From: Octopus vulgaris
Taxonomy: Eukaryota
Direction of reading: 5' to 3'
Assembly: GCA_951406725.2 (NCBI GenBank)
Contig: OX597814.1
Coordinates: 192,200,001 to 192,264,000 of the forward strand
Length of the DNA stretch: 64,000 nucleotides
Made by a program: the position numbers and the translations under genes. Positions 4,787 to 63,378 of the stretch are shown one piece after another. The first letter of the stretch is position 1. Every line of letters starts with the position of its first letter. The notes under the pieces are model-generated. The model did not search any database, was not told the origin of the DNA, and was given only the letters and a program-made list of their open reading frames with translations.

Positions 4787-5470
4787 TTCGTCGGCTATCG
4801 GCGTTTTCCTTTCCTGTGATGACATCTTCCAAGTCCAGCTTTGAAATCACACCAAATATGCAATATTCTTCTCAAACATCTTCAGTGCCTCAACATTCTC
4901 CTAACCAATATGTAGCCCACTTAAAAACAACAAAAGCAGATACATCACCATCATCGTCCCATTATGCATCACCAGTGTCTCATCAGAATAAGAGCTCTGT
5001 TATTATTAACAAACCTGAAAAGACTCAGCAGATGGAATCAGAAATTATCACTACTCCATCTTCTAGAATTAATCAAGATATCTCTAATGATATAAGTAAT
5101 ACTAGCCTTACTAGCTCTGATAATTATCTGTCTCCCTATCAGTATTCTAAACCATATTCTTCTCAGAGTGTTGAGAATAATATCAATGTTCCCTCAGCAG
5201 TACCAGCACCACCATTGATTGAACAGATCCAAGCCAATTTGAAAAAGCTAAAACATAGTTCTCCTAAAATGGCCAAAGCTAGGACTAGCAGTGGAAATAA
5301 ATCCAACTTGAAAATTATTCAAGGTTCTCCTTACCATACGTCATCGAAAGCGGCCAAAACACTAGAACAGCAGCTTCATTGTCTGCGCAAGACCTCAATC
5401 AACCGTAAGACTACATCTTTCGAACCTTCGGCACCAGTCTCTGAATGGAAACAGAAGTTGAAAATGGATG
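4787..5470 (+). CDS. Putative internal coding exon B (228 codons, Ser/Pro-rich with two WH2-like motifs, phase 1-1)
   Basis: Acceptor tttcag|TT and donor GATG|gtatac. A 684-nt open frame in otherwise stop-rich DNA. Motifs LIEQIQANLKKLKHS and LEQQLHCLRKTS. Confidence 0.65.
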
Positions 5471-7964: not shown

Positions 7965-8765
7965 CTCCCAGTTTCCATAGATTTTCTGCTTCCCGTTTGA
8001 ATATTCGCCAGCCTGGAACTCCCCGGCATCGTTCTGCAGCTATGTCTCATTTTAGACCTGTAGCTTCAACAAACACTCCGAACACTTACAATTTGACTAA
8101 ACCTTCTTCAAATATTGTTGCAACTAACTCCACTAATGTTTTAACTGTTGCTGCTAAATTTTCTAACTTCGACCAACAGCAAGTATATCCAAAAGAGACT
8201 AAGAAAGAATGTATCATCTACGAAAAACCTCAACTGTCCTCCCAAAAGTATAAAAGTCCAGTAACTAGTATTTATGAATCTGCAGCAGTTTTTGAACAAC
8301 CCAAAAATTCAGCATACAAACTACCTAAACAGTTTTCACAACAATCTACAGTATCACAAACAACTTCTGAGGAAAAACCGGCAGAATTTCTGGAAGTTAC
8401 TCTGAAATCAACAAAGTTTTCAACTTTATTTTATGGTGCTAAAAAAGATCCCAAGAAGGATTTCACACCATTCGGAAATTACAACCGATCACCTTACGGG
8501 AACCCGTCTTTATTTAAGAGTAATAATAATCTAAACCCGTATGCAAGATCCGTTTCCTACCATGGGCTACTTTCAGAAGCTTCCTACTCAAAGTCTTCAC
8601 AAAGCTCAGGCAGTTATTTCCAACCAATTGGTTCATTCTTCCAGCCTTCGTTTATGTCCCATTCTGAGAGAGGATATTCAGAAAATACCTATCAAATGTC
8701 AGCTTCGGCACCATCACTGGTTCAAAATCGTATCAAATGGGCACGGAACATGTCTTCATTTGATG
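7965..8765 (+). CDS. Putative internal coding exon C (267 codons, Ser/Tyr-rich, phase 1-1)
   Basis: Acceptor aattttcag|CT and donor GATG|gtattg. An 801-nt open frame within ORF 7943..8977. Motifs EFLEVTLKST and SLVQNRIKW. Confidence 0.65.
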
Positions 8766-35782: not shown

Positions 35783-36451
35783 TGAGTATTTATAAAAAGA
35801 AAAGAAAAAAAGGCAACATATGAGTTGGCAACCATTGTATCTGTGCCAGAATCAACTCATTAGCTTTCAGATTATTCTGTCAAATGTAATGCTTATTTAT
35901 GCACATAGCTTTGAATTAATCATCTTGTAGCTTTGAAAATTTGATGATGTGATTGCTTAGCTTTAGAATGGAATTGTAAGGTATGTATGAGGAATTGGAT
36001 CTGGGTAGTTTGAGTGTGTGTGTGTGTGTGTGTGTGTGTATAATAACAATAATAATGAAATTATTGTGTATAGTGCACAGGTGCACTACAACACATCAAA
36101 GGTGGATGTACGGTACATAGAATTATGTACAAAAGTCAGGAAGGTACTATGTACTGTACTGGCACCTTCAATGTATTGTAGTGCACCTGAGCACTATACA
36201 CAATATATATACACATGCACAACAGGTTTCTTTCAGTTTCTATCAAATCTTCTCCCAAGGCTTTTTGTCAACTTGGGGCTATAATAGAAAACTTAACCCC
36301 TCCCCTGAAATTGCTGGCCTTGTGCCAAAATTTGAAATTATTATTAATTTGGGGTCTGGTTCATAAATTAGCATGGAATTTTGGTGGAAGGCTTTAATTT
36401 CAATAACTTCAAAACTAGAAGTTTTTATCATAGAACTAGGGTCAGTATGAT

Positions 36452-36931
36452 ATGCATAAGATCTGGTCATCAAATCTAAGTAGAGACTTCAAACTTAAAA
36501 TCTTCAAAGCCACAGTTGAACCAATTCTACTATATGGCTCAGAAATCTGGACGTTATCAAAGAAGCTTGAAAGGCGGTTGGATGGAACTTACACTCGCCT
36601 CCTTATGAGAGCTCAAAATCTCTCGAGGAAGCGTCATCCAACCAACGTACAAATATATGGGAAACTACCACCTGTATCATCTCTTGTGAAAGGTAGAAGA
36701 GTCCAGTTTGCTGGACATTGTTGTAGAGCTGAAAACGAGATAATTTCTGCTCTTCTCCTCTGGAAGCCATCTACTCGTGATACCAGAGGGCACACACTCT
36801 CCTACCCTGATGTAATCTCCAGGGATACAGGCATCCAGCAACAGGACCTCCGTAATGCTATAATGGACCGTGAAGTCTGGTGTAGCATAGTAAATTCCAT
36901 TGTCTCGACCACGGTCAAACAATGATGATGA
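36452..36931 (+). mobile_element. RTE-like LINE 3' fragment with (GAT)n tail, ending about 120 bp before a WIPF acceptor
   Basis: KLKIFKATVEPILLYGSEIWTL...RRVQFAGHC...DREVW, followed by a stop and tgatgatga. Confidence 0.85.
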
Positions 36932-37049: not shown

Positions 37050-37772
37050 GTAATTCATCTCCAAAACCGGTGCGCTTACCAAATGGACCTACCAATCCGA
37101 CTGATTTCAGATCCCAACTCAATAAAAATGTATCAAACGGTGGCTCGGTGATCAATGATAACAAGACTTTGCCACAACGGAACGTACCTGCAACTCGTAA
37201 ATTTCAGCCTCCAACTCCTCATCCTGTAAACACTAGCAATGACATCAACAGCAACATCACCAACAATAACCACTCTGTTAATGTTAATACAACCCCCAGC
37301 CCATCGCAACACACTGCTGGTGGCATTGCAATGAACGTTGGCGGAGGACGTCGGATGCCAGGATCACATCCGCCTCCACCTCCCCCACCACCTCCAGGTC
37401 GTCCTCCCTCTCTGCCCAACAACCGAACACCAAATAAAAACCGGCCATCCAGCATGATTGGAAGGCCTTTACCTCCACCTCCAACATTATCTTCTTCCTC
37501 CTCCTCGTCCTCTTCAAGCTCTTCCTTAAACCGAGCCCAGCCTCCACCACCACCACCACCACCCACACGAGGTCCACCACTCCCTCCCGAAAGGGTAGCC
37601 AGTAGCAGTGGGACACTACCAAGGTCAAAACCTCCAGCTCAGAGGCCTCCTCCTCCACCTCCTACAAGACCACCTGCAGGCCCTTCCCGGGTAATGATCC
37701 AAAATCAAGAAGGCCCAAGTCCTCCACAGCGAACATCAAGTAATCTTAGTTCGAGCAGCAACATGAGCATGG
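37050..37772 (+). CDS. WIPF: WIP/verprolin family proline-rich exon
   Basis: Acceptor ttttttctgtatcag| and donor ATGG|gtaagt, 723 nt, phase 1-1. Contains polyproline tracts, RPLPPPP, GPPLPP and PSPPQR. Confidence 0.88.
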
Positions 37773-37794: not shown

Positions 37795-38524
37795 CCCTTT
37801 CGTTATTGTATTTATTTTGAGATGCTCTGAGTTTCTTTCAATTATTTTAAATATAACAAAGAATTTAGTAAAATAACTTAGCTATCATTAAGCTTGTGTT
37901 AGGAGTATTATAATAATAATAATAATAATGAAATTATTGTATACAGTGCTCAGGTGCACCACAAATTGTCAAAAGTGCATATAAAGAATATGCAGTAATG
38001 TGCAAATGTCTAGAAAGTGAACAGTGTATGAGTCAGATACATGCTTGCCTGTGTATGGAGGGGAGAAAATGAGGTGTAGTGTTGGCGAATCTCAGGAAGC
38101 ATGGAAGTTTTGAAGGATGCAGTGCTCCGACAACTAACAACTGATGCCAGGAGTCTGTTCCATGCTTCAGCAACTCTTAGCGTGAAAATATGTTTCCAAA
38201 AGTCATGGGAGCTGTGCTGTTTTCTGACTTTGTAAACATGTCCACGAGTGTTAGACAGATGGAGTTTGAAAAAGTGCTCAGAGTTATTGTTTGTAAGATG
38301 GTTAATAATTTTATGGGTGTCTTCCAAGTCAGCTGCCAGACATCGGAGTTTCAATGTGTCCATGCCCAGGGAAGTAAGGCTTTCAGAATATGGCAAATGC
38401 CTGATGTATGGTATTCTCTTGGTTGCACAAGGTTTGGTGAAAGATTTTTATTCAAAACTTATGGAAATAAGACATTTGTACTACAGAGCCAGAGCCAGTT
38501 TCAGCTGGGTTGGTAATGAAAGGA
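37795..38524. mobile_element. piggyBac-type MITE interrupted by a CR1-like LINE fragment
   Basis: The left half (37795-37903) and right half (38428-38524) match the 13791-14011 MITE. TTAA at both ends. Confidence 0.75.
37906..38427 (-). mobile_element. CR1-clade LINE 3' fragment with (ATT)n tail
   Basis: ORF 38010..38396 has LGMDTLKLR...NTRGHVYKV...FTLRVAEAWNRL, the CR1 ORF2 C-terminus. Confidence 0.85.
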
Positions 38525-49265: not shown

Positions 49266-50083
49266 TAAAACACTTGTGACTTCATTTTCCATTGATTGTA
49301 TTTATAAATCAATGCAAAATAGACGCTTCAAAGTTTGTTGACTTTAAAATTTTATTGCTTTATCTATATTGTCAGTGACTTCACTGTCAAGCTGCATTAA
49401 TTCTTACCAAGTCTCACAGCAGAATATATATACTGTTACCATACATATATTTGTTCAGCTGTTGTCTGTTGTTATTTTCTCTATACTAGCTTTGGCAGAC
49501 TTTGAAGGCTTCTGTAAGCTGGATAATCTCATATCTAGTTAATCTATGTATAATAAGTAGGCTCGCCTTAAATCTTGCTCCTCTAATAACCGTGCGCATG
49601 TTCATCCACAGATTTAGGATTATAGTAGGAGGAGGAATGCCAGACACTCTGTGAGTTAAAATATATCACCGAGTCAAGTGAAACAGTCTGAAAATTCATG
49701 TTGTTCTATGAGGATACAAAGACAAATTTCTGTTGATGGAACTATCATTTTTTGCATCGTTCGACACATTCAAACTGGATTTGTAAAATGTTAACCAACT
49801 TATTTTTATTTCCATTATCAAGTTACATTTTCTTTCATATGTAATCTAACAAACGAAAGCCGTAAAGGTGGGGGGAAAAAAATAGATGTTTTACTGTTAT
49901 ACTTTTCTTTGTTTATTTTTACATTCATTTACTTTGTTGTCTGTGACTTCTGTCAGATCTTCTTCAAATATTGCTATCTTTAATACTGGAAATATTCTTA
50001 TAAACGAGACTAAAAATATATTTCTTGGATGTTATTCATCTGAATGATTTCCCTGCTTTAAGTGTTCCAGTTCACTTGCACCG

Positions 50084-51325
50084 ATGAATAACAATCCTCA
50101 GTTTTCTCATTCATATAGCAACCTAGCTAATGGTTACTATAACTACCCCGCTAACCAATGGTACCAGCCGGTTCCTTATAATATTACTCCCAATGGCAAT
50201 GTCCCATCTCTGGTTACCTCAAGTAACTCCTCTACAAATACCAATTCCAAAAACACCAACAATAATTCTAACAGTTCCATTAATGCCATACAGCCAAGCG
50301 CACCTCCCCTGCCCCCTCCTCCCCCATATACTGTATACCCATCTAATACCCAACATTCAGACACCAGGGCCCATTCGGCACCACCTCCTAGCTACTATCA
50401 ATCTCTCAGCTTCTCACTTCCTCCGGCTACCCAGTTCTCCCCTTCCAACTTCTCTCCTCCCCCCATCAACCAAAGTTTCCCCACCGGCCCCACTAACCAA
50501 TGTTCCCCTACCAGCTTCTCTCCTCCTCCACCCTATAACCAATGTTCCCCTCCTGGCTTCTCTCCTCCCTCTTATAATCAACGTCCTCCTACCAGCTTCT
50601 CTCCTCCTCCTAACCAATATTCCTCACCCAATGTCCAACATTCTTCTTCAAATGGTAATCTCAGTAATTGCTCAACTCCACCTTCTCCCACCCACACTCA
50701 GTATCCCCCATCACCTACCCACTACTACCCTTATCCCTATGGCTATCCTTCTCTTATCAATCATTTTGCCACTTATCGACCTCCACCCCCTCTTGACTAT
50801 ATTCCCAAATATATTGATGATCAATGGAAAGAAAGGATATGCAAATTTTTGGACTTACCTTATGACCCCCGAGCCAATACTAATAATAACCCTATCTTAA
50901 AAGGGGGCTATTACGGGACTGTTTATTCTGTAATGAGTGATGGCAACTGTTTTTTCCGCTGCATCAGTCAGGAGTTGACAGGACAACAGACGTATCATTC
51001 CAAATTACGAGCAAAATTGTGTGAGTTTATCGAAAGCCATAGAGAAAAATTTGAAGCTTATGTCGACTGCAGCTTCTCAAAACATCTTCGGAGAATGAAA
51101 AGAGACAGTACATGGGCAACTCATGCTGAAATATTCGGCATGGCAACTCTTCTTGGTTGTTCCATTTATGTCAACACAAAATATGGTTTCACAACGGAAT
51201 GGCTGCAGCATGACCCAGTGTTTCAGTATCACACGCCACTGCCAGGCTACCATCGACAGCCAGCTCTGGGGAAAATCTATGTGATTCATGTCGGAGAAGT
51301 ACATTTTAATCTCTTCGTTGTGTGA
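50084..51325 (+). CDS. Intronless OTU-domain deubiquitinase-like protein (413 aa) with a Pro/Tyr-rich N-terminus, nested in a WIPF intron
   Basis: Uninterrupted ATG-to-TGA ORF. OTU Cys box SDGNCFFRCIS (Cys codon 50948-50950), middle motif WATHAEIFGMATLL, and His box VHFN near the C-terminus. Confidence 0.85.
   Translation: MNNNPQFSHSYSNLANGYYNYPANQWYQPVPYNITPNGNVPSLVTSSNSSTNTNSKNTNNNSNSSINAIQPSAPPLPPPPPYTVYPSNTQHSDTRAHSAPPPSYYQSLSFSLPPATQFSPSNFSPPPINQSFPTGPTNQCSPTSFSPPPPYNQCSPPGFSPPSYNQRPPTSFSPPPNQYSSPNVQHSSSNGNLSNCSTPPSPTHTQYPPSPTHYYPYPYGYPSLINHFATYRPPPPLDYIPKYIDDQWKERICKFLDLPYDPRANTNNNPILKGGYYGTVYSVMSDGNCFFRCISQELTGQQTYHSKLRAKLCEFIESHREKFEAYVDCSFSKHLRRMKRDSTWATHAEIFGMATLLGCSIYVNTKYGFTTEWLQHDPVFQYHTPLPGYHRQPALGKIYVIHVGEVHFNLFVV
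50430..50625 (+). repeat. Imperfect coding tandem repeat, about four 36-42 nt units (xSPxxFSPPP(Y)NQ)
   Basis: Units FSPSNFSPPPINQ, CSPTSFSPPPPYNQ, CSPPGFSPPSYNQ and RPPTSFSPPPNQ. The DNA core ttctctcctcc recurs. Confidence 0.75.
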
Positions 51326-51780
51326 AGAAGAATTTTCAAGAAACGGATTAAATTTACTCATTCTCCAGTCGTAATCAACCATCTTACCTGTTTTTCGCAC
51401 AAAAGTAAGAGTTGCTTTACACTCTGCTGTTATTCATTTTCCGTAACAAAACCATTTATCCGGACTCTTCCTGGTCTGTTTCATGCTCGTCTCCAAATTA
51501 TAAACTTACTGTGAATATCATTACAAACTCTGTACTCGTTTGGCTGCTGTAGTGTTAATTGGAATTTCTTTATGAAGAACCAGGAATGTTGTAATTAACC
51601 TCTCTGTCTATAGAAATTTTTAAAACAAGAAAAAAAAAAATAGAAAAGGTTCATAGTGAGTTGTAATTTATTCTTTCTTTAAAATTCTAAGCATTATATT
51701 CTTATAACTTAGTTTATTATAAAATTTAAGTTAACTTTGTTGCTTTATAATTGAAGTCTACTGTTATGACTTTTGCTTAT

Positions 51781-52000
51781 ATCATCATCTTCATCATCTT
51801 CATCATCTTCATCATCATCATCTTCTTCATCATCTTCTTCATCATCATCATCATCATCATCATCTTCTTCATCATCATCTTCATCATCATCATCTTCATC
51901 ATCATCATCATCATCATCTTCATTATCATCTTCATCATCATCATCATCATCATCATCTTCATCATCATCATCTTCTTCTTCTTCTTCATTATTATTATTA
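51781..52000. repeat. (ATC)/(TTC) trinucleotide microsatellite
   Basis: Direct reading. Confidence 0.95.
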
Positions 52001-52804
52001 CCAGTTCAATGTTACTCAAATTCTTGTTAATGTCTGACCAGGTAATACTAACTTCAAATTGTAGTGTTGAATTAAAGCATCCATTATGTAGAAATGAATT
52101 GCTCTGACCAATAAATTTAAACTTTTAAAGCAATGAACTGTCAGGTTGTGATACACACAGTGGTAAATTTGATGTAAGACCTTCAGGTATAATTTTTTGT
52201 TGTTTGCATGTATCCAGACATTTATCATTTCTGAATATGTGCAGATGACAGCATCATTTCACATAACGAATGCTATTTTTCAACTCTGCGGGTCAAAGTT
52301 AGTATCGCTTGGTCAAACATTAACAAGAGTTTGAGCAACCTTGAATAGATTTGTTCTTCTAAAAATCATTTCTCTATTATTATATCATTATTATTATTAT
52401 TAAGATTATATCGTTAGCATGCCACACATAATGCTTGATGGCATTTCATTCACCTTTATGCTCTAAATTCAAATTTCACCAAGGTAGACTTTGCTCTTTA
52501 TTTTTTCAGGGTTACATCAACCCCAGTTGATCACTGGGGGTTGATGTAATCAACTTACCCAACTCCTCTGAAAATACTGTACTTGTGCCAAAATTTGAAA
52601 CATTATTATTATTACTACTACTACTTATTTTTAATTTGCATGCTGTTACAATCACTTGCCAAAACACACCCAGCATCCTAGGGCGAGTGAAGGCTAAGAA
52701 ATGTTACAGTATGATTGAAAGCTTGGAGAGGGGAAGTGGTAGGGGCAGTAGTGAAATATATCTTCATGTAATACAATACAGACATTTAAATTGATAGCAT
52801 TTTT

Positions 52805-54250
52805 CTAAGGATGTCGGCAGAACTTATTAGCACAATCTTTTGGATTTCTCTGAGACATGGTTTTAATGAGATGTTGTCTAGATGTTTCTGACATCCTTTT
52901 TTTTATCATATCAAGAGTACCTACAACAACAGGAACAGTTCTTGCCTCTTGTATTTCAATTTCCAGGTCCTTATATTTACTTATTTTGTCAAATTCTTTG
53001 ACAGATATATTTTTATCAGGAGGAACACTTACATTTATTTGTCTACAAGTATTTTCTTCCCTGTTTTTAATCACTGTCTGGTTGATTAGCCTGGATCATT
53101 TTGTTGGTGTTGACTGGAAAATCTCAAAGGATAGTGACATTTTTACCTTCAACGACCGGCTCGGGATGATGTTCATACCAATAAGCAGAGGTGTTGGCTT
53201 TGTAGTGTTTACATATTTTCCAATGTAAATACCGTCCTCCCCTATTGTGGAAATTTTTGTATTTGTTTGGTATCAGCACTGGACATCCCTAGATTAGATG
53301 GTCTATTGTTTCTTCAAATGTGTCACAGAATCTGCATTTGGGGTCAGAACCATTTTGAAGAACATTAGCCTAGGTGTTTTTGGTAAGCATGCTTTAATCT
53401 TGTGCCACCAATATGAAACCTTCAGTCTCTGCTTTCAGTCCTGAGCTTCTCAGGACTGAAAGTTTGGTCTACATCAGCATTTCGGCTTCTATGATGAAGC
53501 TTCTGGCTCCACTGTTCCTCAGTTTGTTTCTGCCAGTTCTTTTTTGCAGTCTGTTTAATCCATTTTGCTTATTTGGTGGCAGTGGTTTCAAGTTCTTGGT
53601 CTAATTTAGAGTTAATGCCGAGTTCCCTTGCGAATTTCCAAGCTTCTTTGACAATAGAATGTGATGTTCTGCTGCTTTCATGTTTGCACACAAGCCACAG
53701 CATCCAGTCCTCTGTATTAGATAAGTATCTGTTCATTGCTATTGTGGAGGTCCTATAGCACAGTTCTACCTGCATCATTCCTCTTCCCCTAATACTTCTA
53801 GGTAGGTACAGAGGATCAACGTCTGCATTTGGATGGTGCATGTTCTTAGATGTTAGTAGTTTTCTTGTCGTCCTGTCCAGGTTTTGGAACTCTGTAAAAT
53901 TCCAGTTAATGATGTTAAGACTGTATTGGACTACTGGAAGTGCCAGGGTGTTAATGGCTTCAATGCAATTCTTGGAGTTGAGTTCAGTTTTTAGTATGAG
54001 TCTTATTCTCCTGTAATATTCCTTTCTTATTTTTTCCTTCATAGTAGCATGTTGTATACTATCTCCATTTATCCCCATGTATTTATAACTTTCTTGTGGG
54101 TCAAGCTCCTTGATGGTAGTGTCGGTATCTAATTTAACAGAAGCTGTTTGCTTGAGCTTGCCACTTACAAAAGTTGCTTTAGCACACTTATCAAGGCCAA
54201 AATCCATTCCAATGTCATTACCGAATTCCTTAACAATTGATAACAGCCCT
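52805..54250 (-). mobile_element. Decayed restriction-like-endonuclease non-LTR retrotransposon (R4/Dong-like), 3' portion
   Basis: RT end FGLDKCAK...YKYMGI...RGRGMMQVE, CCHC knuckle CRFCDTFEETIDHLI*GCP at about 53280-53340, and REL region INVSVP...KISKYKDLEIEI. Contains frameshifts and stops. Confidence 0.8.
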
Positions 54251-54575
54251 GCTATCAATAAAACAAGTACCAGTTGAACATTGGGGTCACTGTAATTGAG
54301 TCATCCCCTCCCCCAAAATTGCTGCCCTTGTGGAAAAATTTGAAACCATTATTATTATTATTAAGGCGGTGAGCTGGCAGAGTCATTAGCACTCTGGACT
54401 ACATGCTTAGCGGTATTTTGCCCCTCGCTTTGTTCTGAGTTCAAATTCTGCCAAGGTTGACTTTACCTTTCATCATTTCAGGGTCAATAAAATAAGTACC
54501 GGTTATGCACTGGGGTTGATGTAATCAACTTCATCCCTTCCCCCAAATTTCAGGCCTTGTGCCTCCAGTAGAAAA

Positions 54576-54611
<36 letters not shown>

Positions 54612-56116
54612 AAAGGTTTAGTGGTATTTCATCTGTCTTCATGTTCTGACATCAAATGCTGCTGAGGTTGACTTAGCTTTTCATTGTTTTAGGGTTTGTA
54701 AAATAAGCACCAGTTGATCACTGGGGTTGATGTTGTCGACTAGCCCCTCTCAGTGAAATTTCAGGCCTTGTGCCTATAGTAGAAAAAAATCATCATCATC
54801 ATTGTCAGATTTAGCTAATCTGTATCATAGATTATGTTTCAGAGAAGAAACGGCCCAAAAGATATCAGTCACATGGAAAAATAGTGTTAATTCATTCAAT
54901 GTAGGAAACATCGAAAAGCTAATTAGGAATAATTATGTAATGAGAAAACAACACTTCCATGCTATCATGATGAATGACATTCTGGATTGACGATAAACAT
55001 TTTCTATTTAGCTGACATTTGTCACCAAAGGTGTGCAGTGATGGCACACTGAATGAAAGGAATTTAAGCCACAGAAATGTAAATACATGGTTCTAGTCAG
55101 AGAAAGTGGGAGAAAGAGAGAGAGAGAGAGAGAGAGAGTCAGACAGACAGACAGAGAGGGGTTGGGTGTAGTAAACTCTGTTCATTGTCTTATTTCTGTT
55201 TTATTCCATTCAATAACTTCTACCATATTTTTCTGTTTGATATAGGAAATATGGAAAAGGTATTTAAGGGAATGAAATTAATGAGAGAAAATGAATTAAT
55301 TCATTAAGCATCTCTCTCTCTCTCTCTCTCTCCCTCCCATCACTCACTCACTCACACACACACACACTTGTAAAGCATTTACATTTTTACTTCTTTATGG
55401 TTTAAATTTATTTGATTGGCTTTCCTATCTCTGCACACTTTCTGATAATGTCAATTAGTTAAATTGAAAGTATCACAAAATATAATAATAATAATAATAA
55501 TAATCAAATGGTGGTGCCCCAGCATGGCCACAGCTCGTGAGCTGAAACTAGATAAAATAAAATAAAATAAAAAATAAAATAATAATCCTTTCTAGTGGAA
55601 TAATAATGATATTGATAATAATATTAACAAATATCAATAATAATGATATTAATAATAATCTTTTCAACTGGAAGCACAATGCCTCAAATTTGTGGGGAGG
55701 GGATGTGTCAATTACATCAACCCCAATGTTTCACTGGTGCTTAATTTTATCGACCCTGAAAGGATGAAAGGCAGAGTCAATCTCGGCAGAATTTGAATTC
55801 AGAACATAGCAACAGGCGAAATACTGCTAAGCGTTTCATCCAGCATGCTTACAACTCTGCCAGCTTGCCACCTTATTCATAATTATAATAATTATAATTA
55901 TTTCAAATTTTTGCCACAAGGGCAGCAATTTTGGGGAAGTTGGGGTGAGTTAATTACATCGACCCCAGTGTTAAACTGATACTTATTTTATTCACCCCTC
56001 GAAAGGATGAAAGGCAAAGTTGACCTTGGCGGAATTTGAACTCGGAATATAACAGCAGACGAAATACCACTAAGCATTTCGCCCGGTGTGCTAACGATTC
56101 TGCCAGCACACCGCCC

Positions 56117-56147
<31 letters not shown>

Positions 56148-57683
56148 AATATTAATAATCCTTTCACAAGGTTAGTTGATTACATTAACCTCGGTGCTCA
56201 ACCGGTACTTATTTTATTACCCTGAAAAGGATTAAAGTTAACCTCAGCAGGATTTGAACTTTCCATAAAAGCCAGAAGAAATGTCGCTAAGCATTTTTCG
56301 TCTGATGTGCTAACGATTCTGACTGTAATAATAATCATGGTTTCAAATTTTGGCTCAAGGCCAGCAAGTGTGGGGGTGGGGGTACTTATTTCACAACCCT
56401 GAAAGGATGAAAGGCAAAGTCAACCTTGGCCAAGTAATAAAACATAATGTTTGTTTTTACATAATTTCTTTTATATTTAGGTGTAATGTTACAAGAAACA
56501 TTAAACTTCATTGTATACTATTGTTTCATTCTTTAGTGGGTGGTAGAAAGATAGATTTTTAGTCTGGACTTAAATTTCAAATGGGATTAACAATGATTTT
56601 TATCCAGCTGAAAAATATGAGATTTTCACATATTCTGTGACATGAAGTATTCCAGATTGCAAGGCAACGTGCTAAAGAGAATTGAGACATTGTTGGGGAA
56701 AAGTATATTTGGAATGGTAATGGCACATTGGCCCTTGCTGATACTGAAAACAAAAGGACCTGGAAGTGCTACTGAGAAGTTGTTGAATGAGGATAATGCA
56801 TGGAGAGAGGTGGGGTTACTCGAAATAAACCCAACAGAGATACCAATCATTGAAGTTACCAGGCATTGATCATCATCATCTTCATTTAATATCCGTTTTC
56901 CATGCTGACATGGTTTCTACGGCTAGTTGCCATTCCTAATACCAACCACTCTAAGAGTGTAGTGGGTGCTTTTTACACGCCAGTGGCACAGGTGCCAGTG
57001 ACACAACACCGGCATTGGCCATGACTACAATTTCATTTGGCTTAACAGATTTTCTCAAGCACAGTATATCGCCAAAGGCCTTGATCATTTGTCACTGCCT
57101 CCATGAGGCCCAATGTTTGAACAGTGTTTTTAATGTGCCAGTTAGGCAACACTGGTATTGGCTTTGACTACAATTTCACTTGACTTGATGGGTCTCCTAA
57201 GGTCTCAGTCACTTGTCATTGTCTCTGTGAGGCCCAACATTCAAAGATCATGCTTCACCACCTCGTCCCATGTCTTCCTGAATCTACCTCTTCCACAGGT
57301 TCCCTCCACCATGCAGCTAAAATCAAATCTTGTTTCTGCATTTTAAAGTAACATAATTTTTCCTTGCTTACTTTCCTCTTTGTTGAGTCTTAAGGGTATT
57401 GGCCATGGAATGGTTCATCTGTTTATTCTGTAGACTTATGTCTTCTTTTGCGTGTATCCTTTCAATTACCTTGTCATTATTGAAATATTTTCACTTAATA
57501 TTTTTTCTCTTTTATGCTGGGTGAAATGCTTAGCAGTACTTCGTCTGCCGTTACATTCTGAGTTCAGTTCTGCCGAGGTTCACAGAGCACAAACAGCCAG
57601 AAGAAATGCCTTCAAGCATTTCACCTTATATGCTTACAGTTCTACTAGCTTGCCTAAATAATAATAATAATAATAATAATAAT

Positions 57684-57773
57684 ATGAGAAAGCAACCATA
57701 CCATGGGGATGTGCCAATACATACAGATAGAGAAATTAAGGCCAATAGGCCAGATATAGTTGTCAGAGATCAT
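57684..57773 (+). mobile_element. Short R4/Dong-like REL endonuclease fragment next to (TAA)n
   Basis: Translates PIHTDREIKANRPDIVVRD (the RPD motif of REL endonucleases) and follows an (AAT)n tract. Confidence 0.6.
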
Positions 57774-59011
57774 CTAGGTTAAATAAGTACCAGTTACGCA
57801 CTGGGGTCAATGTAATTGACTTAATCCCTTTGTCTGTCCTTGTTTGTCCCCTCTGTGTTCAGCCCCCTGTGGGCAATAAAGGAATAAATATTTTTTCTCT
57901 TTATTAAAAAAGTTGCTATACAGTTAAGAAGGTTGTAATGCAAACACATGGTTTCAGGTTCAATACTACCACATGGCCCAAAACCTTGCCAGTGGATTCA
58001 GTAGACGAAAACTAAAAGACACCTGTTATATGTATATGTGTTTATATATGTGTGGGTTTGTGTGTGTGTGTGTGGCTATTTATGTTTCCTTGTCCAGAGA
58101 GTGTGTTAATTGTAAATAAACATCATACAAACAGTGTTACTTGTGTGCAACCTTCCGCAAAAACATGTCCAGCCATTATACTGTAAAAAGCTTTCAGTTC
58201 ACTCTGTAAAGTGGTTGGCATTAAGAAGGGCAACCAGCTGTAAAACCATTCCAAAACAGACAATGGAGCTTGGTGCAGTTCTCTTGCTTGTCAGCTCCTG
58301 TTAAACCATCCAGCCCATGCCAGCATAAAAGACAGACATTAAATGATGATGATGATGATGATGTAGTAGCAGTTTGGTTCTCATCCTGGACCCAATACAA
58401 CTGACCACGTATTCACTTTATGGCAGGTCTTTGAGAAATCATGGGAATATTACCAAGTAGTGTACATTTGCTTCGTAGACCTCAAAAAGGCTTACAACTG
58501 CATGTTGTGAGGCATGCTGTGGAGGGTTTTGGAGGAGTTCATTTTTAGTATTCTTGTTTGTGAGAGCAGTCGTGTTTATTTTAGATATTTTCATTTTAAA
58601 AATCATCTCCGGCTAATCATTGAGAGGATGTTGGTGTTGCCTTGGCGGAGGTTTGCATTCTCTGAGTGTTCTTGTTTGTTATTTATTTTATCAATTAACA
58701 AAAAGCTAGTCAGCCTTGGCATAAACCAGATGGTATTAAATACTGCAAACCCTGTTTTGTTTTGTTTTTTTTTGTTACATTCAACAATTTCATTCATCTC
58801 ACACCAAGATATATAGATTTTTATTTCATTGCTTTTTTTTCATTTTTGTTCTTTCCTTCTTTGTCTAAGTCAGTTATAACCCCCTTCGTATCTAGGATGC
58901 TATATGGGAATGCAATGATAAGAATACTTCTGATTTAGTTATCACTGGTAACGATTTGATAGAGTTGGAAGATGGATACAAGAACAAGTAGTTTGCGTAA
59001 ATGTGTAAATA

Positions 59012-59577
59012 TTGGGTTGTCCGGAAAGTTTGTGCCGAATTTTAAAGGATAGAAAAAGATCAATAAATACTTGCCATTACATTTTTAATCAACCAAATAT
59101 GAACCATTTTGTTGTACAATGCGTCTTCATCTTTCCTTTAACTTGAAAATACCCTCTTCCCAGAACTTAGGTGGTTTCATAGCAAAGAATTCATCAAGGT
59201 ATCTTTTTACGGCATCCAAGGAATTGAAATTTTTACCATTAAGACTATTCTGCAGAGACCTGAATAAGTGGAAATCCGAAGGAGCAATATCTGGTGAATA
59301 TGGAGGGTGGGCTAACACACCCCAGCCGAGCTGCAGAAATTTTTGTCTGGTTCCCAAAGCATCAAGTGCCAAAAATGAACTTTCTTATCTTCCAATTTAA
59401 AGGGTTACAGAATTAACACATGTTATAGGAACATAAACCTTCCTCCACAAAAAGATAGCTTAAACTGTGCTCTAAATAGAGGTGTAGTCAAATCCTATTT
59501 TATGGACTCAACCATGTTCTAAAATAAGTCGAAAGGTAAGCTACTATAAATTGGCACGAACTTTCCGGACAACCCAA
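59012..59577 (-). mobile_element. Internally deleted mariner transposon
   Basis: TIRs TA-ttgggttgtccggaaagtt ... aactttccggacaacccaa-TA. Remnant HPPYSPDIAPSDFHLFRSLQN in ORF 59127..59372. Confidence 0.9.
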
Positions 59578-60170
59578 TAGAACCAGGCACAGAGTAGGAT
59601 CATTTCAATAGTGTGTTGGCGATAGTAAATGTTTCTGTTGGTACTGATAAGATGAAATTTGTTAACATCTACTCATTTCAAGAACTTTTATACCAGAAGC
59701 GCTGACAGGGCTCTGCCTCACTTCTGTCCTTGAAGACTTGCATACCCACCTACCTCCAACCCACCTACCTCTTTCTCTCTATACATAATGGACTAACCAA
59801 CAGCAGCTCATTTGCTCAACAGAACACATAGAATTAATTTTATGCTGACCCCTTTTTCCTTATTGTTTTAAATATGCTGAGGTGCATGATCTAGTGGTTA
59901 GGACATTGCATCTGTAATCGTGAGATTGTGGTTTCAATTCTCAGACTTGATGGTGCATTGTATTCTTGAGTAAAATACTTCGTTCAGCATAGCTCCAGTC
60001 CACTCAGCTGTAAATGAGTTACCCTGTGAAGGACTGGCACCCCTTACATGTGGCATATTGTGATCTTGATCTCACACCAGGTCCTAGGAGTCCTAGAGAC
60101 ATTAATATCCAGATGTTGTTGATGATGATGATTAACTGTTTTTACATATTTGTCTTTTGTTCTCTTCTAG

Positions 60171-60275
60171 ATATTACAAAACGTGGCCATTTCCATGATG
60201 TATATGAATTTCCACCTCCTGAGCCTTTTAGTGGGTGTGCAAAGACATACCCTAGTCGTAATTCAAGAAATGCTG
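60171..60275 (+). CDS. WIPF: WIP/verprolin family exon encoding the WASP(WH1)-binding domain
   Basis: Acceptor ttctcttctag| and donor GCTG|gtaagt, 105 nt. DITKRGHFHDVYEFPPPEPFSGCAKTYPSR matches the WIP WBD pattern FH-x(4)-[LF]PPPEP-x(5)-KxYPS. Confidence 0.9.
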
Positions 60276-63319: not shown

Positions 63320-63378
63320 CTGGAAATCGCCGGGCTCCGCCACCTCCTCCTCCCCCTCCAATTTCTGCGGTGCGATGA
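63320..63378 (+). CDS. WIPF: WIP/verprolin family terminal coding exon (AGNRRAPPPPPPPPISAVR*)
   Basis: Acceptor tttattttgcag|CT in phase 1, with stop TGA at 63376-63378. The R-x-APPxPP C-terminus is typical of WIP proteins. Followed by 3'UTR-like sequence. Confidence 0.85.

Follow-up and report, generated by a model that had tools for sequence, protein, structure and literature searches.

The 64-kb stretch of octopus DNA analysed here (the window) carries exons of a WIP gene, and the longest open frame of the window lies within one of the introns of that gene (Table 1). The WIP exons are phase-1 and run to the stop codon at 63378; they begin with a WH2-like exon, presumably the first of the gene, which is recognised by its motif and lies ~8 kb upstream of the window (locus L123). 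Exon 60171-60275 matches the WASP-binding peptide of WIPF1 (E = 8.4e-6), and the host intron, read from the sequence as 37773-60170, has GT..AG borders. The open frame (50084-51325, 413 aa, protein P0001) runs on the WIP strand inside this intron. The original prediction had claimed both its fully open 413 codons and this placement; our reading of the frame confirmed the first, and the intron borders together with the WIPF1 match bore out the second. Three further candidates for alternative WIP exons, large, open and symmetric in phase 1 (342, 684 and 801 nt), also lie on the WIP strand (1347-1688, 4787-5470 and 7965-8765, the second with WH2-like motifs).

Table 1 Features of the WIP-OTU locus, in window coordinates.
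Feature	Position	Strand	Basis or detail
Upstream Pro-rich WIP exon, 5' border of the host intron	37050..37772	+	Join to 60171 deduced from phase and GT/AG borders
Transcribed exon carrying the ORF	49400..51655	+	Unbroken from 49653 (run X1) and 49400 (run X2); 5' end as covered
OTU-family predicted deubiquitinase ORF, 413 codons	50084..51325	+	ORF reading, Pfam, structure model
Low-complexity N-terminus rich in Pro/Ser/Asn/Tyr, aa 1-217, four PPxY	50084..50734	+	
Block aa 218-238, conserved across four aligned orthologs, directly ahead of the pre-OTU module	50735..50797	+	
Pre-OTU module, aa 239-258, predicted helix, common to Ginger1 and Helitron OTUs	50798..50857	+	
OTU catalytic core	50921..51322	+	D286, C289 (codon 50948-50950), H407 (51302-51304), N409
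Intron spliced out of the OTU transcript, GTGAGT ... TCTAG, starts 330 nt past the stop	51656..60170	+	
WIP exon for the WASP-binding domain, spliced to the OTU exon; would be 3' UTR there	60171..60275	+	WIPF1 match
Last WIP coding exon, up to the stop at 63378	63320..63378	+	Read from sequence

Residues 285-367 of P0001 matched the Pfam OTU domain (PF02338) at E = 1.1e-14 and 55.5 bits, against a curated cut-off of 23.3. The catalytic motifs read D286-G-N-C289, W344-A-T and H407-F-N409, confirming the earlier claim that they are intact, and the triad C289/H407/N409 is retained in all four aligned orthologs. A predicted structure of aa 225-413 had a mean pLDDT of 88, with OTUD5, OTUD1 and OTUD3 as its top solved folds. 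By Pfam score, triad and predicted fold, P0001 is a member of the OTU cysteine protease family and is predicted to cleave ubiquitin. The model has the OTU fold and Cys-His-Asn/Asp triad of human OTUD1, OTUD3 and OTUD5 (PDB 4bop, 4bou and 3tmp; TM-score 0.57-0.59); however, structural identity is 16-21%, P0001 has no Pfam UIM/UBA-type domain, and its pre-OTU helix has no overlay on these structures (137 columns aligned with OTUD1, rmsd ~10 with OTUD5).

The N-terminal tail contains PPxY motifs at aa 79, 101, 148 and 161 (4 versus 0.8 expected, p = 0.006). This enrichment is limited to P0001 and its ortholog P0003, with none or one motif in P0004-P0007, and a 39-42-nt internal tandem repeat (50494-50610) supplies two of the four motifs; we thus treat it as a weak lead. 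A PSAP late-domain-like motif at aa 71-74 was rejected because it is lost in P0003 and in the related organism B. Past the TGA at 51323 the frame stays open for 62 codons (51326-51511), and ortholog P0005 has Trp where P0001 has its stop. A GTAAGA donor at 51405 lies in that open frame, with a phase that fits the WASP-binding exon after 26 open codons, and an ATTAAA occurs at 51347, just past the ORF stop.

Conservation of the ORF

A DNA search of the genome matched the ORF at one place, and a protein search returned P0001 itself plus three other matches at 33-35% identity. The gene is thus single copy and not one of many near-identical transposon copies, an outcome that the original prediction had named as contrary to it. 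No close parent gene above 35% identity to P0001 was found in the same genome, in a search that short diverged exons could escape. Over aa 235-413, the orthologs P0003, P0004 and P0005 are 97%, 74% and 73% identical to P0001, and P0006 and P0007 are further orthologs; outside the orthologs, the best identity is at most 46%.

Comparison with run X9 (from organism B) gave 11 differences in the ORF among the 12 of 13 differing letters listed, 10 of them silent and one a replacement. With ~220 silent and 758 replacement sites, dN/dS is ~0.03 (p = 3e-6), which is far from the contrary value near 1. The ORF is thus under purifying selection, which implies that it is translated. In organism E, the whole 2.5-kb stretch lies in a single contig that ends short of any WIP exon; 11 of the 12 indels listed there, out of 20, fall outside the ORF and the one inside is 3 nt, which agrees with selection, although we did not count it as a test.

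Splicing of the OTU exon onto WIP

Three of the four RNA-type runs (X1, X2 and X3, from two studies) contain the splice join 51655|60171. Single contigs of X1 and X2 cover 49653-51655 and 49400-51655, respectively, and X3 ends at the same base, 51655. In all three, the 30 letters past 51655 are identical to 60171-60200; this is one letter fewer than the 31 that we require for a bridge, and that the runs are RNA is itself a guess. The genomic letters fit a splice at this point: GTGAGT follows 51655, and a pyrimidine tract and AG precede 60171. Three large runs of unstated kind that we read as DNA-type (X15, X17 and X18) continue to 51740 without a joint, and the organism B contigs end short of 51655 (X9 at 51427, X13 at 51635) and are uninformative on the join. 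These results demonstrate that the ORF exon is spliced onto WIP exon 60171.

The OTU gene therefore uses exons of WIP rather than simply lying inside one of its introns. An independent nested gene has no exon in common with its host, and here the OTU exon joins exon 60171; the original description of an intronless nested gene thus holds for the coding sequence, which is intronless, but not for the gene. Because the stop lies 330 nt ahead of the join, the WIP exons would serve as 3' UTR and no fusion protein would result. A WIP-OTU fusion protein was likewise rejected on the grounds that the join is past the stop and that the WIP frame upstream of the join has no ATG after its last stop. The covered 5' part of the exon (49400-50083) contains 11 ATGs; these, and a stop codon that precedes an exon junction by 330 nt, make it likely that output is tightly limited.

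No splice into the OTU exon from upstream was seen, as X1, X2, X3 and X9 have no loose end ahead of the exon, and it is likely that this exon is driven by a promoter of its own inside the WIP intron. We also considered that it might act as an internal (poison) cassette within the WIP pre-mRNA and truncate WIP, with an acceptor upstream of 49400 and the OTU translated from another, rarer RNA. A pyrimidine tract and AG at ~49350-49377, just 5' of the start of X2, would suit such a cassette, and the RNA contigs mark no start site. A stop ahead of an exon junction is the layout of decay targets in vertebrates, and this exon has that layout. The lack of a loose end in all four runs argues against a cassette, as does selection on the ORF, which implies translation; on the layout, the only thing that this reading concerns, we judge it unlikely.

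Synteny aside, the locus has the features of a domesticated gene (i.e., it is single copy, intact, expressed in runs inferred to be of RNA type, and under purifying selection). None of the outcomes named beforehand as contrary to the original prediction (orthology to a spliced OTUD gene, many transposon copies, or no expression together with dN/dS near 1) was observed, and a spliced transcript is present.

Relationship to transposon OTUs

Two profile searches yielded 80 and 114 proteins, and a metagenome scan yielded the best 80 loci of 185 relatives. OTUs of Ginger1 and Helitron transposons have a common F-x-P...C-x-x-L-x-L module ~45 residues ahead of the catalytic Asp. A profile of this module from 22 transposon-linked OTUs scored P0001 at 13.8 bits, a value reached by 0 of 1000 shuffles, while a family of mollusc OTUs (family A) and cellular OTUD3-like rows scored at most 0.6 bits with the same 22-row profile. 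P0001 ends 6 residues past the catalytic His407, compared with 7-15 residues in Ginger, 36-1034 in Helitron (measurable in 12 of 16) and 28-56 in family A. The original prediction had likened the pre-OTU segment to Helitron modules: the module is real and common to transposon OTUs, but Helitron is not its best match, and the C-terminus of Ginger1 fits better. Sequence comparison thus makes Ginger1 the more likely donor. Five of the six members of our Ginger set have an integrase and H2C2 by Pfam and the sixth by alignment; one of the set, L051, has 98-nt terminal inverted repeats, in agreement with the description of Ginger1 in PMC2836005.

With five-sequence profiles of equal size, Ginger was chosen for P0001 in 20/20 and 15/15 draws. 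Held-out rows were sorted correctly in 20/20 (Ginger), 150/160 (Helitron), 180/180 (family A) and 40/40 (cellular) cases, and 28 outsider OTUs went to family A (17), cellular (4), Ginger (2, always) or mixed assignments (5). P0001 scored 111-117 bits with Ginger profiles versus 75-79 with cellular profiles, and 111 bits compared with 141 for held-out Ginger rows. When profiles were restricted to the core, P0001 was assigned to Ginger in 10 of 15 draws and P0004 in 14 of 15. All of these comparisons draw on rows (98-row and 53-row sets) hand-picked from hits fetched by likeness to P0001, with no metazoan OTUD1/4/5/6 among them.

In a 53-row tree that includes the columns of the module itself (i.e., the trait under test), P0001 fell in a 93/87 clade with 6/6 Ginger and 8/9 Helitron rows. 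The core alone did not fix its placement: its sister there was a Solemya protein at 63/70 (unstarred), and core-only AU tests rejected no grouping of P0001, whether with cellular OTUs (0.37), bivalve family B (0.34), family A (0.29) or Ginger as one clade (0.069, the least favoured). A cellular or old molluscan origin is thus compatible with the core-only trees.

Searches for remnants of a donor element bore out the earlier statement that no Rep, helicase or terminal inverted repeat is nearby. When 23 transposon proteins were compared with the 64-kb window, matches were confined to 50813-51322, with no integrase, Rep or helicase remnant; a full-length Ginger profile and tblastn likewise matched only the OTU part. 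No terminal repeat pair flanks the ORF among the 25 longest of 888 inverted repeats in the window. The locus is not a Helitron, with no Rep/HUH or PIF1 helicase adjoining and an OTU that is not internal to a long ORF. It is also not a Ginger1 element: P0001 resembles Ginger1 (PMC2836005) in its pre-OTU module, its DGNCFFR..WAT..E core and an OTU at the very C-terminus, but it lacks YPYY, the H2C2 zinc finger, DDE, GPY/F and 40-270-bp terminal repeats, is single copy, has a Pro-rich N-terminus and is joined by splicing to a host gene. We rejected a donor element from within this genome, as no OTU lay within 8 kb of an integrase relic at the 10 examined of 63 integrase matches. A viral origin was rejected too, since viral contigs (3 loci at 25-31%) and predicted viral structures (12-23% identity) came no closer than cellular OTUs. 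Sequence-cluster searches with P0001 returned generic OTU clusters only.

Other repeats and OTU sequences were seen along the way. Fragments at 36440-36925 (+), 53569-54300 (-) and 38010-38447 (-) resemble decayed ends of non-LTR retrotransposons, with only a weak DUF6451 match. Eighteen of 25 own-genome OTU matches (among L007-L029) are one decayed OTU-bearing repeat family of a different sequence style. A 247-codon OTU frame at L004:1144-1884 (G000:C8) has its catalytic Cys replaced by Ser and may be a pseudo-deubiquitinase without activity; the segment ahead of this domain gains no score for the module.

Family A (L002 and L003 in this genome; P0087 and P0088 in Argonauta; also Mercenaria, Haliotis, Patella and Lottia) has 35-41% core identity to P0001 and is single-ORF here, but unlike P0001 it lacks the module, has a conserved 28-56-residue C-terminal extension and forms its own clade (97/81). 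L002 and L003 (G000:C2:78.84-78.86 Mb) are single-ORF genes on opposite strands, separated by 17 kb; both have orthologs in Argonauta, and L003 is 90% identical to an Argonauta protein. In the module tree, family A clusters (91/83) with P0051, in which an OTU is fused to an IS1595/Merlin transposase, and this family may itself be another, older domestication. As L002, L003 and L015 (OTU1/YOD1-like by its architecture) are also single ORFs, the lack of introns in P0001 adds little evidence about its origin.

Discussion

We lean, with slightly better than even confidence, towards the following explanation: P0001 is a single-copy, transcribed and conserved predicted OTU deubiquitinase, the last ~175 residues of which come from the C-terminus of a Ginger1 transposase, and it is encoded by an exon with its own promoter that is spliced to the WASP-binding exon of WIP. 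A Ginger1-type element would have inserted in the WIP intron, or its OTU part would have moved there; the inserted element would have lost its integrase, and the OTU part would have gained a Pro/Tyr-rich disordered N-terminus and come to use the last WIP exons as 3' UTR. From OTU enzymology, the protein would cleave ubiquitin from its targets via Cys289-His407-Asn409. More tentatively, the N-terminal tail might dock the enzyme on WW- or SH3-domain partners, and the upstream ATGs and downstream junction might repress output. The position of the gene gives a weak hint of a link to WASP ubiquitination. Single copy, a spliced transcript, purifying selection and a transposon-type pre-OTU module all support the original prediction that a mobile OTU domain gave rise to a host gene. 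That it is lineage-specific is not established, because Solemya and other bivalves carry stand-alone OTUs with the same module. These proteins (the group of P0105, P0106 and P0115-P0152; ~190-270 aa) are kept across species and are candidates for further domestications.

The bivalve proteins raise the question of whether P0001 instead represents, in octopods, an ancient family of stand-alone molluscan OTUs (Solemya P0105/P0106, perhaps the bivalve P0121 family) and later moved into the WIP intron, with any transposon origin being older than the bivalve-cephalopod split or with the module having passed from such a gene to transposons. P0105 has the same module, an FFRCIS motif, a short C-terminus and 37% core identity, it is the sister of P0001 in the core tree, and members of the bivalve family are 69-75% conserved among themselves. 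However, the 63/70 support is unstarred, the pair is no longer sister once the module is included in the tree, the Solemya protein sorts with Ginger in every draw, and no gastropod or chiton ortholog with the module is named among the 80 + 114 hits, so we regard this history as unlikely. We find a Helitron (Helentron) donor, as first proposed, improbable: Helitron OTUs are internal, with their 36-1034 residues past the His, Helitron profiles won 0/20 and 0/15 draws for P0001, the 18 decayed OTU repeats of this genome are of another style, and a Helitron-only module profile fails to separate P0004 from its shuffles, even though it scores P0001 at 5.7 bits, above all 500 shuffles (maximum 3.4). 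The Helitron L052 does have a Trp-type module, and PMC9741609 describes Helitron OTUs and, in molluscs too, the related VTD elements. Origin from a cellular OTUD gene (of OTUD1/3/5 type or mollusc family A) as a retrocopy or duplicate that is old and diverged, with a convergent module, would account for OTUD1, OTUD3 and OTUD5 being the closest solved relatives by sequence, for the best single-sequence score going to family A (88.9 bits, compared with 79 for the Solemya protein and 78 for a row of Helitron type) and for other OTU genes of this genome being single ORFs, and the AU tests do not reject a cellular grouping. The gap between Ginger and cellular profile scores, the absence of a genome parent above 35% identity, and the missing module and conserved C-terminal extension that set family A apart from P0001 make such a copy improbable.

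The Ginger1-derived gene that we favour has partial precedents. Bao, Kapitonov and Jurka (2010, PMC2836005) describe Ginger1 with a C-terminal OTU, the mollusc Aplysia included, Ginger elements are known in molluscs (PMC10294476) and OTUs are known in Helentrons (PMC6431247). In the accessible parts of these sources, the host genes of PMC2836005 derive from transposase/integrase, and the domesticated transposon deubiquitinases of PMC9741609 have the VTD fold, not OTU. P0001 resembles the Helitron/Helentron OTU and VTD descendants of that article in that a transposon deubiquitinase domain was freed and kept as a host gene, but it differs in its OTU fold, and a shared-exon layout is not among the cases described in the part available. 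Searches for literature on this gene (octopus OTUs or deubiquitinases, nested or domesticated genes, domestication of Ginger or Helitron OTUs), which mostly did not reach subscription journals, found none. Domestication of VTD-fold transposon deubiquitinases is thus already known, and what is probably new here is an OTU of probable Ginger1 type with a shared-exon layout.

A more far-reaching reading, to which we give very little credence, is that the recruited OTU is an alternative first exon of WIP that controls ubiquitin on the WIP-WASP actin machinery, and that it is one of several molluscan domestications of the same module. At its most speculative, ribosomes reading through the TGA at 51323, combined with splicing from the 51405 donor, would physically link the enzyme to WASP; this has no RNA support, as X1 and X2 run unbroken across the donor.

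The activity of transposon OTU domains was untested as of 2022, according to the accessible part of PMC9741609. A small, single-copy, selected Ginger1-type OTU that is predicted to fold well offers a direct route to test both this activity and its use by a host. Furthermore, because the two genes share 3' exons, they may be conflated in gene models and RNA counts of octopus WIP.
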